Shown: positions 60,221-63,200 of the stretch, piece by piece | Numbering within the stretch: the stretch's first letter is position 1 | How the letters are laid out: each line of letters begins with the position of its first letter | From: a virus | Reading direction: 5' to 3' (one strand) | Length of the DNA stretch: 64,000 nucleotides | UHGV virus genome: UHGV-1362809 | Program-made: the position numbers and the translations under genes | The notes under the pieces: model-generated | Databases searched by the model: none | What the model saw: the letters and a program-made list of their open reading frames with translations, nothing else | Told to the model about the DNA's origin: nothing

Positions 60221-63200
60221 TTACCCTCTACTACCGAGTGCATTGTTTGTATAACCTCCAGTAGGTCGAGATATGGCATTTGAGTTAGTAGAAATACCCA
60301 TCCCACCTCGACTACCTATAGCACCTCCAACGGAGGACTTAGATGCAACACCACTAAATAAAGGTTTGTAATTTTTGTCCACTAAATAGGAGTAAGCAAG
60401 TACTGTAGCTCTAAATATATCGTCAGTGTAATTTCCACCCTTTTCAACTGTTTTTTCTCCATCGTCCTGTACAGTAACCAACTGTAAGGCAAAGTGACAC
60501 ATAGGAGTACCACGTTCACTCTGAGGATAGCCGTCAACCAAAGTACTTATTTGATTTATAGGCTTTTCAAGTTTAGGAAACAACATACCGTCGTTCAGTA
60601 AACTTTCCTTAAACGACGAAAAGTCCGCGTACTTAACTGAATACTGTTCAACTTGTATTCCTTTTTCAGCCTCAATATCGTCTAACAGTTTTGCGGAGTT
60701 CCATCTATCGCTTACTACCATTTTTACATTGTAAGCCTCTATTATTTTGTAAATAACATCCTTACAAATATGGGTAAAATTTATAGGAATAGTTCTATCG
60801 GGTATGATTTCTGCAAGCGCATCAAAAACAGGCTTATCCTGTTGTTTATCAAAATGACCCAAACAAAGTGCAAAGGAGTTATTTACTCGTCCAGCGTCGA
60901 TTGCAAGTACTTTGGGCGTGTTGCTATCTGTCCAGTTAGAACTAATAATAGCAGTAGTCATTTTGTTGCCTGCTTTAGTGTCAAAATTGCGGTGACTCAA
61001 CACAAAGGCATTTTTAGTATCGGAAAAACAGGATTTTATCAACTGTAGGTCTGAAATGTATGGGTATGCGGACGAAGGAGGTATACACATATAGTCACGC
61101 ATAAAACCAACAGGATCGTTCCGTTCATCGTCACTAAAGGAGTCCCTTGTATAGGTAGGATTAAATTCCCAAGTCGCATACTTTCTACCGAATATATATT
61201 TAGAAGTTTTTGTCTGCTCATACAAACGCATAATTTTATCGTTTACGGACGAAGGGGAGGAAATATTACCAAATAATGGATTTAGAACATTATCCTGTCC
61301 TTGTTTGTACAAGTTTATCGTAGCTGTATGTACTGTTCTAAAAGAGTTGAGAATAGCTTTATGTAGCTCATCAGCGTCATATTTAACCGACCCCGACTGA
61401 TTTGCCATAAACCATCCGAGCTCATCAATTACAGCTGATGTTCGCGTATTGTGGACTAAAATATTAGAACACGAAAACAAACTATCCTTATTATCTACTG
61501 TAACGTCATAGACAGTTTTTTTCTTTAATTTTTTTACTTTGACAACTTTTTGGACCAGTACGTTACAGTCCTCATATTTTCTAAAGGATCCATTTTTGTT
61601 TATATTAGCCTCGACGCAACAATACCCTTTAAAGTGAGGTATTTTTTCTGCCGTATAGTCTGTCTTGTTATTAATTGTATAATCTTTTCTATACTGTCTT
61701 TTATTTATTCCAGTATAGTTTTTCATATATAAATAGCTACTATGGTGGGATACCTTTACAAGATATTCATTATAATGTTTTCTTAGTGTTGATATATATC
61801 CTAAACTAAAGAAAAGTAGCTGGAGTTGTTTAGCCATCTTTTTACTAAGCGTGGAATAAATAATCCCGGTATGATTACTTCCACGTGCAATTTGTCCATC
61901 GCAACTAACCATAGCATCTATACAATTTCTTATACATTCTTCTGGTGCCTGCAATATAGACCATGGAATAGTCTTACTTTTAGCAAGCGCAAATCTTACC
62001 CCTAAGTAATCAAAAAAGTCTAATATAGGTTTATTACTAAATTCCACAGAATACAATTCACCATGTACGTATTCTCTGCCATCAATTCTGTCCTGCGGAT
62101 AAAATCCAAAACATTTATAAAAACATTTTTTAAAGTCCCTTATTTTAGCCATATTTCCGTTAGTAAAATTGATAGTGTAGTCACCATTAATCCAACCATC
62201 GGCTAATAAATATCCAATCAAACGAGCTAATTCGGGAGTCATTTTACTCGGAACTTTAATATTTTTCCAACAATACTCTAAATTAGGATTAAATACTTTG
62301 TGTAATTTATCGAACTTAAATTTCTTAGTAACAGTATAAATACAAGGAAGTTGATGTCCTAATGAATCTCTTGGCGATTGCCTTACCAGCATACCATTGT
62401 TTACCAATGGAGAAAGGTATAAAACAGATAATCTAGAGTTGCAACTAACCTTACAGATGTCGGACAACTCGTCAGTTTTTACTGTACCATGTTTTTCCAA
62501 GTATTTTCCTATTTTATAATAAGTAGGATACTTAATTTCATAACACAGTTTCAACTCCTTAGGAAACAAACTTTTTGTTTGTACAAATACCAATTTTCCT
62601 AACAGGTCTTTTTGTTGAACGAACTCCTCCTTACCCTTACTATTTAATGTCAGCACTCTATGGTCATAGGTAGCATCTAATTCCATTCCATTTTGTAAAG
62701 TTATTCTATACACCATCTTTTTTAATGGTTGTTTTACTTTGTTTATAATGGTGCGCACACCCTTCTTACAAAGGGTTTTATCACCTATCTTAACATTCTT
62801 CATAGGTATAAGACCACGATTTGTATTTACTAACACGTTACCTGGAATACAGTTACCACGAAGGGCACGGATATCAGGAGTTGCTACATAACCCATAGTA
62901 TTAACAGTACGATAACGATAGAAAGTATCCTTAATCGTGTACAAAGATTCTCCATACTTAGTACTATAATAATCTAACATTTCATTATAGCTTCTAAACC
63001 ATGGAGAAGTAGTTAGATAACCGTAGAGAGTATCATAAACAGATTGTTTGACCTGAGCAATAGTCAAAGCAGTATAAGTACGATGAAGCTGGGAAGAAGG
63101 CAGCAAGCCATAGGAGGAAATAAGATTAGGATATTTAAGAGTCCAATGCAAGTGATATGCTTCCATCATATCAAAAGTAGCGGATTTACCAGCACGTTGC

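Follow-up and report, generated by a model that had tools for sequence, protein, structure and literature searches.

A predicted class-1 intein with a LAGLIDADG endonuclease domain in the large terminase gene of a jumbo phage

The 64,000-nucleotide stretch of the virus genome UHGV-1362809 analysed here, called the window throughout, carries an open reading frame of 1176 codons plus stop (60221..63751, minus strand; all features given below by window coordinates lie on this strand) for the large subunit of a phage terminase (TerL). Between Walker A and Walker B of its ATPase domain stand 468 residues, and the question raised by this locus is whether they belong to the terminase or represent an element that has invaded it. 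It is our firmly held view that a class-1 intein of 468 amino acids (aa) with a two-motif LAGLIDADG endonuclease interrupts the TerL of a jumbo phage of about 237 kb, and that this intein would splice and home. The data presented here document the anatomy of the element, its precise insertion, a presence/absence polymorphism, purifying selection and a signature of recent spread. For annotation this means that the reading frame comprises a terminase of 708 aa and a mobile intein of 468 aa and should not be described as an unusually large terminase.

Minus-strand translation of positions 61448..62851, corresponding to precursor residues 301-768, yields 468 codons with zero stops, which start with CIPGNVLVNTNRGLIPMKNVKIGD and end in SNILVHN. 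The residues ahead of this segment read ...PDIRALRGN and those behind it TRTSAVIDELGW (TRTSAVIDE), while two LAGLIDADG motifs, LARLIGYLLADGWI and CIRNCIDAMVSCDGQI, occupy intein residues 208-221 and 306-321, respectively. A preliminary description of this DNA had proposed an intein with two LAGLIDADG motifs at exactly these positions, with a cysteine right after ...ALRGN as the start of block A and a SNILVHN end followed by threonine; every one of these parts is read in the translation at its place, and only the strand had to be added. The layout is that of a HINT domain split by a LAGLIDADG endonuclease domain. The Pfam profile Intein_splicing (PF14890) matches with E=1.7e-11 and 44.6 bits against a curated cut-off of 35.8, and LAGLIDADG_3 (PF14528) with E=1e-10 and 42.2 bits against a cut-off of 22.5, the latter in two stretches of which the best comprises precursor residues 606-662. 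When the Protein Data Bank (PDB) sequences were searched with phmmer, archaeal VMA inteins were retrieved by the endonuclease part (3.5e-11) and the gp41-1 intein by the splicing part at the N-terminus (6e-06). On the strength of these matches, the resemblance to inteins and their endonucleases is beyond chance. The G+C content of the intein (31.8%) is lower than that of the exteins (37.5%), which fits a foreign origin, the difference being too small to carry weight alone.

The residues expected to catalyze splicing were examined over 26 full-length homologous inteins. Block A, CIPGNVLVNTNRG (62813..62851), opens with the nucleophile Cys1 (precursor C301), a cysteine in 26/26 homologs, and block B, GMELDATYDHRVLT (62648..62689), contains the TxxH motif (T61-Y-D-H64) with threonine or serine in all 26 and the histidine in 25 of them. 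Blocks F and G, TVYDVTVDNKDSLFSCSNILVHN (61448..61516), provide Asp449 and the terminal His467-Asn468; D449 and N468 are found in 26/26 and H467 in 14/26 homologs. The +1 residue and C-extein nucleophile, Thr769 of the precursor or T301 of the extein (61445..61447), is at least 90% conserved in 64 intein-free terminase homologs. The first LAGLIDADG motif, LARLIGYLLADGWI (62189..62230), contains Asp218 (LLAD218G; Asp in 23 homologs, Glu in two and Gly in one), and the second, CIRNCIDAMVSCDGQ (61892..61936), contains Asp318 (SCD318G) as part of a D318-G319 pair present in 26/26 homologs. In a further intein alignment, A2, the threonine and histidine of block B as well as D218-G219 are invariant. 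Judged by its sequence, with Cys1, TxxH, the block F aspartate, the His-Asn end, the +1 threonine and the HINT profile, the element qualifies as a class-1 intein, and its two LAGLIDADG helices, each ending in an acidic residue, identify a predicted homing endonuclease of the double-motif, monomeric type. Assignment to class 3, which would call for a Trp-Cys-Thr triplet with a block F cysteine as nucleophile, is ruled out because the Cys1 nucleophile is present and the cysteine in block F/G, Cys461, is not conserved, being replaced by alanine in the other 25 homologs.

An AlphaFold (AF2) model of the intein, calculated from a thin alignment of five sequences, reached a mean predicted local distance difference test score (pLDDT) of 67. 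Block means were 74-90 for the HINT parts (residues 1-109 and 430-468) and mostly 72-94 for the LAGLIDADG part (residues 200-368), where two blocks fell to 55-66. In Foldseek searches the model found TliVMA as its best match (7.9e-21), then PhoVMA, PI-TkoII, PI-SceI and PI-PfuI, and next to these intein-endonucleases the free-standing LAGLIDADG enzymes I-DmoI, I-SceI and I-Tsp061I. The endonuclease part as modelled adopts the alpha-beta-beta-alpha-beta-beta-alpha pseudo-dimeric fold. Between the N-terminal HINT half and the endonuclease lies an extra helical segment (residues 110-194; 62270..62524) that is also present in the homologs. Pfam returned only sub-threshold matches for it (HTH_DeoR with E=0.034-0.097 and, in one homolog, TrmB with 0.079); the segment may be a winged-helix DNA-recognition region, a notion that is unproven.

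The identity of the host protein as a large terminase, likewise put forward in the preliminary description, is borne out by a profile match of the precursor to PHROG 17415 ("terminase large subunit", 1.8e-151), by Foldseek matches to terminases and by the adjoining portal gene. A Pfam scan of the precursor gave zero terminase family matches. In tblastn searches the TerLs of jumbo phages (PaBG, NCTB, Rhizobium RHph phages, Erwinia Y3-like phages and Xanthomonas PhiXhv) matched the precursor with 29-39% identity, each in two to three separate pieces. The N-extein (aa 1-300; 62852..63751) covers a cysteine-rich N-terminal region as well as the ATPase domain's first half, its last residues being ...PDIRALRGN, and the C-extein (precursor aa 769-1176 plus stop; 60221..61447) comprises the remainder of the ATPase domain and an RNase-H-like nuclease domain. 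Across the 64 intein-free homologs G184, R186, K189, R298, G299, D308 and E309 are invariant, Q185, G188, S190 and T301 are at least 90% conserved, and the C-terminal nuclease region contains invariant acidic residues including D484 and D547. The uninterrupted protein was modelled with AF2 on the intein-free allele P0002 introduced below, using 64 homologs (mean pLDDT 83.9). In this model a strand (178-183), the P-loop GQRAGKS (aa 184-190; 63182..63202) and a helix form Walker A, assigned from conservation and this strand-loop-helix arrangement, and a strand of residues 302-307 (RTSAVI/V, pLDDT ~85-92) is followed by D308-E309, that is by the end of Walker B and the catalytic glutamate (61421..61444; precursor aa 770-777, extein 302-309). 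Among solved large terminases the HK97 enzyme is the best Foldseek match (4.6e-15), followed by T4 gp17, D6E, Sf6 and the P74-26 ATPase domain, and the terminase nuclease domains of G20c, P22, SPP1 and human cytomegalovirus (HCMV) are also matched. When PDB sequences were searched with the spliced TerL, by sequence as well as by profile, nothing meaningful was returned, so that the link to solved terminases comes from fold comparison alone. Taking conservation and model together, the host protein is to be regarded as a phage large terminase with Walker A, Walker B, catalytic glutamate and RNase-H-like nuclease.

The insertion lies between residue 300 and T301, inside an RG-x↓T-R motif (the arrow marks the junction here and below) and eight residues ahead of the catalytic glutamate; in the P0002 model this point falls in a short loop that leads up to the strand of Walker B. 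The position "just before Walker B" of the preliminary description therefore holds, since the modelled strand 302-307 and the invariant D308-E309 follow directly. Its rendering of the strand as SAVIDE needs adjustment: the strand itself is RTSAVI, then come Asp and Glu, and the intein is inserted one residue ahead of it. Distant intein-free TerLs, those of PaBG and RHph_I42, run LRG-RTRxxxxIDE across a gap of 468 columns in the alignment. A search with the predicted spliced product retrieved metagenomic proteins of exactly 708 aa, P0002, P0003 and P0005, which differ from it at 6 (99% identical), 17 (98%) and 48 (93%) residues, respectively, and all have ...ALRGS↓TRTSAVVDE... at this place. 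The contigs that carry them share the gene order of the window (two methyltransferases, thymidine kinase, terL, a 62-aa open reading frame, portal and further genes). The 1176-aa form is represented by a cluster of ten members, P0004, one of which, P0269, is identical to the window protein and is named "intein/homing endonuclease" by one source; five contigs, 235-237 kb long and each from a separate sample, encode the identical 1176-aa protein. ERZ27229744, ERZ27271816 and JGI 3300045988 are samples with this phage. Since near-identical proteins of 708 and 1176 aa both occur, the element is a presence/absence polymorphism in a circulating phage of ~237 kb. Comparison of the two forms indicates that the intein was inserted precisely, with zero extein residues gained or lost, and the product length proposed earlier agrees with the arithmetic (1176 - 468 = 708) and with the natural intein-free alleles.

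These alleles also decide against the reading that comes second to last among the alternatives, namely that the 468-aa segment is a native domain that is never excised or a disabling insertion in a pseudogene. Nothing more than the uninterrupted reading frame speaks for it. The segment is absent at exactly this point from 99%-identical alleles and from distant intein-free homologs, every intein catalytic residue is present, the ATPase core is split, and the carrier genome has been assembled repeatedly at ~237 kb from independent samples, with purifying selection acting on extein and intein. The preliminary description had itself named colinearity of homologous terminases across the segment as the observation that would turn the intein into a native domain; what homologs show is a gap of 468 residues, and the verdict falls on the side of the intein. 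We regard the native-domain and pseudogene readings as effectively refuted by the 708-aa alleles and as having hardly any probability left.

How the intein came to be in this gene can be approached from natural variation among five intein-bearing DNA alleles, those of the window and of contigs L008, L009, L010 and L013. Within the intein nine sites are variable, all of them by synonymous third-position changes, and four of the nine lie within the endonuclease domain (codons 224, 254, 323 and 333). Given that 19.7% of random single-base changes would be synonymous, this pattern has a probability of ~4e-7 in a test that ignores transition bias. Among nine 1176-aa members of the cluster T392I is the single intein amino-acid change relative to the window, and a cluster member of 1184 aa (P0272) also differs within its intein. 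Read in this manner, the sequences speak for purifying selection on both intein and extein. Divergence is very unevenly distributed: the exteins of the intein-bearing alleles differ at 1.8-7.4% of nucleotides and the inteins at 0.07-0.43%, a ratio of 4- to 103-fold (Fisher p 2.6e-4 to 4.9e-34). Furthermore, outside a short central tract the extein polymorphisms cut across intein status, the window (WIN) resembling the intein-free L005 and L009 the intein-free L011. As extein haplotypes are thus common to both states, the same intein resides in several terL haplotypes that also exist empty.

The short central tract is formed by two intein-linked flanks that differ from the intein-free alleles, one upstream (-28..-1 nucleotides (nt); 62852..62879) and one downstream (+1..+24 nt; 61424..61447). 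Comparison of the empty site of the L005 type, CTTAGAGGTAGC joined to ACGCGCACCTCGGCAGTGGTGGAC, with the joined intein-type flanks of the window, CTTCGTGGTAAC and ACGCGAACATCAGCTGTAATTGAT, illustrates the contrast. In the +1..+24 stretch the wobble position is changed in 7/8 C-extein codons, in addition to one first-position change (V to I). Eleven differences within -22..+24 nt, including S300N and V307I, are fixed between all intein-bearing and all intein-free alleles, and of the 38 differences between window and L005, 14 are concentrated in the interval -28..+23 nt, against an expectation of 0.9 (P ~1e-12). The intein-free outgroup P0006/L012 (76% aa identity), which reads LRGS↓TRCSAAVDE, sides with the intein-free state at 8/9 informative positions by hand count, from which it follows that the flank linked to the intein is derived and was imported. 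This flank favours A/T-ending codons, like the AT-richer intein. L009 has the intein-free state at -28, -13 and +12, suggesting different tract ends or patchy mismatch repair.

The linked tract is uniformly short in several extein backgrounds (at most ~70 nt upstream and at most ~30 nt downstream) and looks like a co-conversion tract of a few tens of nucleotides. Taken together, the low divergence of the intein, the extein haplotypes common to both states and the short linked tract indicate recent and repeated homing into several TerL haplotypes, as far as this can be read from allele comparison. A search for the empty site with intein-type flanks gave 0 matches in viral_contigs and metagenome_contigs and is uninformative, as the positive control, the N-junction of the intein, also gave 0 in these collections, which are without this phage.

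The steps by which such an element acts are those of established class-1 intein chemistry. The 1176-aa precursor would be translated with its ATPase core split between Walker A and Walker B, and it should be unable to package DNA because a 468-residue domain separates the two halves of this core. Splicing would begin with an N-S acyl shift at Asn300-Cys1, followed by attack of Thr+1 on the thioester and cyclization of Asn468 with assistance of His467, by which the intein would be released. A final O-N shift would join the exteins as ...LRGN-TRTSAVIDE... and yield a TerL of 708 aa with an intact ATPase core. The predicted spliced junction reads ...ALRGN-TRTSAVIDELGWF and the corresponding junction peptide ...ALRGN-TRTSAVIDELGWFMANQSGSVK; the unspliced N-junction reads RGN-CIPGN. 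The freed intein, or the endonuclease domain while still within the precursor, would then cut the intein-free terL of co-infecting relatives, and repair from the intein-bearing copy would transfer the intein and, on either side of it, ~25 nt of flanking sequence. That splicing is needed for viability of the phage, as stated in the preliminary description, is a sound inference; the repeated recovery of the carrier genome, along with purifying selection on intein and extein alike, would be indirectly in keeping with splicing.

Several points weigh against this reading. Splicing and endonuclease cleavage by this particular intein are inferred by analogy. Block F reads VYD449, with DSLF replacing the usual HxF of the homologs, and is thus without its usual histidine. 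The residue at -1 is asparagine, the fitness of which for the first splicing step is uncertain; relatives inserted at the same site vary at this position (L, R, K or A). AF2 confidence is low for intein residues 110-194 (pLDDT <50) and 370-429, and the neglect of transition bias in the synonymous-only test has already been mentioned. Finally, at the 11 fixed positions the local empty alleles deviate from the sequence that flanks the intein itself, so that it is uncertain whether the endonuclease would cut them, and intein-bearing and intein-free alleles coexist, apparently within one sequencing project (SRR25571509, SRR25571911).

The last of these points lead to the alternative that survives best. 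The intein would splice, its endonuclease would be inactive, and the element would move between terL haplotypes by ordinary homologous recombination during co-infection. Intein-bearing and intein-free alleles side by side in near-identical phages would be in line with this, as would the fixed flank differences within -22..+24, which could make the local empty site a poor target, and decay of the endonuclease after fixation is expected by the homing-cycle model (bioRxiv 10.1101/2025.01.02.630785). On the other hand, both catalytic aspartates and the LAGLIDADG helices are intact and conserved, the variable sites in the endonuclease domain are without exception synonymous, and the combination of a short tract, several backgrounds and an intein diverged by at most 0.43% fits break-induced gene conversion over random crossovers. 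We rate an inactive endonuclease as a minor though real chance.

Considerably less probable is that the intein also acts as a conditional post-translational switch, in which a redox-sensitive Cys1 or DNA-triggered splicing would delay the terminase ATPase until late infection. The insertion parts Walker A from Walker B and should render the precursor inactive, the intein holds several additional cysteines along with the extra helical segment, and a possible regulatory role of inteins clustered in ATPase motifs has been raised by Kelley et al. (PMC5050341). Nothing in the data requires regulation, and the pattern of spread is that of a selfish element; since near-identical phages exist without it, the intein confers no necessary function. 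We are similarly sceptical of the most far-reaching picture, according to which the element would be sweeping through a natural jumbo-phage population and would belong to a twin hot-spot (sites a and b, 5-6 codons apart) with site switching and tandem inteins, with splicing as a timing switch for packaging. The weakest proposal, a group I or group II intron with a LAGLIDADG gene that would be removed at the RNA level, could appeal to the frequent splitting of phage terL genes by group I introns (PMC12880540) and is ruled out, with next to no probability remaining, by an in-frame, stop-free insert whose ends carry the HINT blocks A, B, F and G and by an Rfam scan of window positions 60000-64000 that returned zero family matches at E up to 1.

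With the spliced and homing intein as the preferred explanation, its relatives deserve a closer look. A word-indexed search with the intein alone returned P0001 as a single match and overlooked the identical cluster P0004; an exhaustive HMMER search was used instead and yielded 2043 relatives at E <=0.001. The best full-length relatives (the metagenomic P0123, P0124, P0125, P0126, P0127 and P0134 among them) are 33-44% identical to the window intein, have the same domain order and are nearly all found in TerLs of this family, inserted close to the window's site; the nearest one outside the intein's own 90% cluster has 44% identity. Two insertion sites can be distinguished, site a as in the window (LRGx↓C...HN↓TR) and site b 5-6 residues downstream (TRxxx↓C...xN↓S/C-x-DE). 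TR follows the intein in each of the seven site-a cases found. Some relatives hold inteins at sites a and b together, whereas the window is occupied at site a only.

More complex arrangements were also observed in this TerL family. Eight proteins (P0122, P0137, P0153, P0164, P0154, P0196, P0142 and P0238) contain two inteins that are 4-6 extein residues apart (e.g. ...HN↓TRIFA↓C...), and in P0122 both tandem copies are full-length homologs of the window intein. P0130, P0133, P0143, P0196, P0238 and P0268 carry three inteins in single TerL genes. The insertions occur at about eight profile positions (~115, 150, 180, which is the P-loop, 246, 293-300, 385-420, 485 and 545-559), of which the P-loop is the commonest and the region of the window's site the second. 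P0125, a site-b intein and the closest relative with its 44% identity, nests in the site-a clade of a neighbour-joining tree without support values, a placement that suggests a switch between insertion sites six codons apart.

Further observations concern terL and its surroundings. In the N-terminal extension of TerL (aa 123-160; ~63270-63385) the cysteines C123, C126, C157 and C160 are invariant in the 64 homologs (CxxC...CPxC), a pattern that points to a zinc ribbon in front of the ATPase domain; close to the N-terminus there is another pair of the CxxC type. The portal protein gene (57937..59940; PHROG 16240, 1.2e-126) lies 280 nt downstream of terL on the same strand, an arrangement also seen in PaBG and Erwinia phage Y3, and an N6/N4 DNA methyltransferase gene (63766-63942) is located ahead of terL. 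Among the other genes of the window, a 452-aa open reading frame (46058-47416) matches DUF7487 (2.9e-34) and PHROG homing endonuclease/HNH families (1.9e-23) and looks like a free-standing homing endonuclease gene among structural genes. A 921-aa FtsK/SpoIIIE-like ATPase (32780-35545; Pfam 1.4e-22, PHROG 1358 1.7e-41) is encoded in the virion-gene region, and a 354-aa protein with a CBM_5_12 carbohydrate-binding module (54399-55463; 1.2e-07) is possibly a chitin- or glycan-binding component of the tail fibre. The syntenic contigs L005 and L008 add a second methyltransferase, an MT-A70 methylase, thymidine kinase, dUTPase and anaerobic ribonucleotide reductase (NrdD/NrdG). NrdD comprises 700 aa in L008 versus 566 aa in L005 and L006, and the nrdD gene may accordingly vary by an insertion as well.

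Inteins in large terminases are by no means new. TerL is the commonest intein host protein in actinobacteriophages and the most frequently invaded phage protein (PMC5050341; bioRxiv 10.1101/2025.01.02.630785), with 293 TerL inteins listed in a survey of 2025 (bioRxiv 10.1101/2025.01.02.630785). Kelley et al. (2016) described seven insertion sites in the ATPase domain, including the P-loop and Walker B (TerL1-e, Gaia gp2), found five TerL inteins to splice in reporters, one at Walker B among them, and found TerL1-b and TerL1-c to cleave intein-less alleles (PMC5050341). Like the window intein, the actinophage elements belong to class 1, often contain a LAGLIDADG endonuclease and sit at or beside a nucleotide-binding motif of the ATPase domain. 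Site a and TerL1-e are both at or next to Walker B, a likeness drawn by motif only. The window element differs in its host, a PHROG 17415/PaBG-like TerL with a cysteine-rich N-terminal extension, and in its size, 468 aa where the largest intein of the actinophage survey has 385 aa; splicing and cleavage were seen experimentally for actinophage inteins, whereas the window element is known from its sequence.

Closer to the present case, intein insertions have been noted before in the TerL of PaBG-related ("Lupandier") jumbo phages (Evseev et al. 2020, PMC7412058). The TerLs of the Lupandier phages, Y3 and PhiXhv-12 belong to the same family as the window protein, are 29-37% identical to it and bear inteins as well. 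In Y3 and PhiXhv-12, however, the insertion is in the Walker A P-loop (GQR↓C...HN↓xGKS), ~115 residues upstream of the window site, while the P-loop of the window is uninterrupted. The insert of PhiXhv-12 (L002:1501-5079) reads C...VVHN↓C, is ~480 aa long and has LAGLIDADG motifs; that of Erwinia phage vB_EamM_Y3 (L004:809-3637) reads C...IHHN↓S and is smaller. The deposited feature tables leave the intein unmarked in both "terminase large subunit" coding sequences.

What the window and its metagenomic counterparts add is a natural series in public metagenomes, in which several extein haplotypes occur with and without a near-invariant intein and a sharply bounded linked tract of ~46 nt; the source projects are SRR25571509, SRR25571911, SRR25477608, SRR29133656 and ERR10754072. 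For an uncultured jumbo phage, such a series offers a clean system in which homing, the length of co-conversion tracts and the tolerance for altered target sites can be measured. The endonuclease would represent a new LAGLIDADG specificity, its presumptive target spanning the codons for RG(S/N)↓TRTSAV(V/I)DE.

Solved intein-endonucleases, namely TliVMA/PhoVMA (7QSU, 7QSS, 7QST), PI-TkoII (2CW7), PI-SceI (1VDE) and PI-PfuI (1DQ3), have the same layout of HINT domain and double LAGLIDADG endonuclease as the window intein, with Foldseek E values from 7.9e-21 to 4.8e-11 at only 12-19% sequence identity. They sit in V-ATPase, DNA polymerase or ribonucleotide reductase, whereas the window intein sits in a terminase, and its segment 110-194 has no confident match to known accessory DNA-recognition domains. 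The window intein is quite divergent. As TerL inteins as such are already known, it is one unexceptional example of a very frequent phenomenon, and its interest lies mainly in the clean series of alleles with and without the intein and in the twin-site hot-spot of its relatives.

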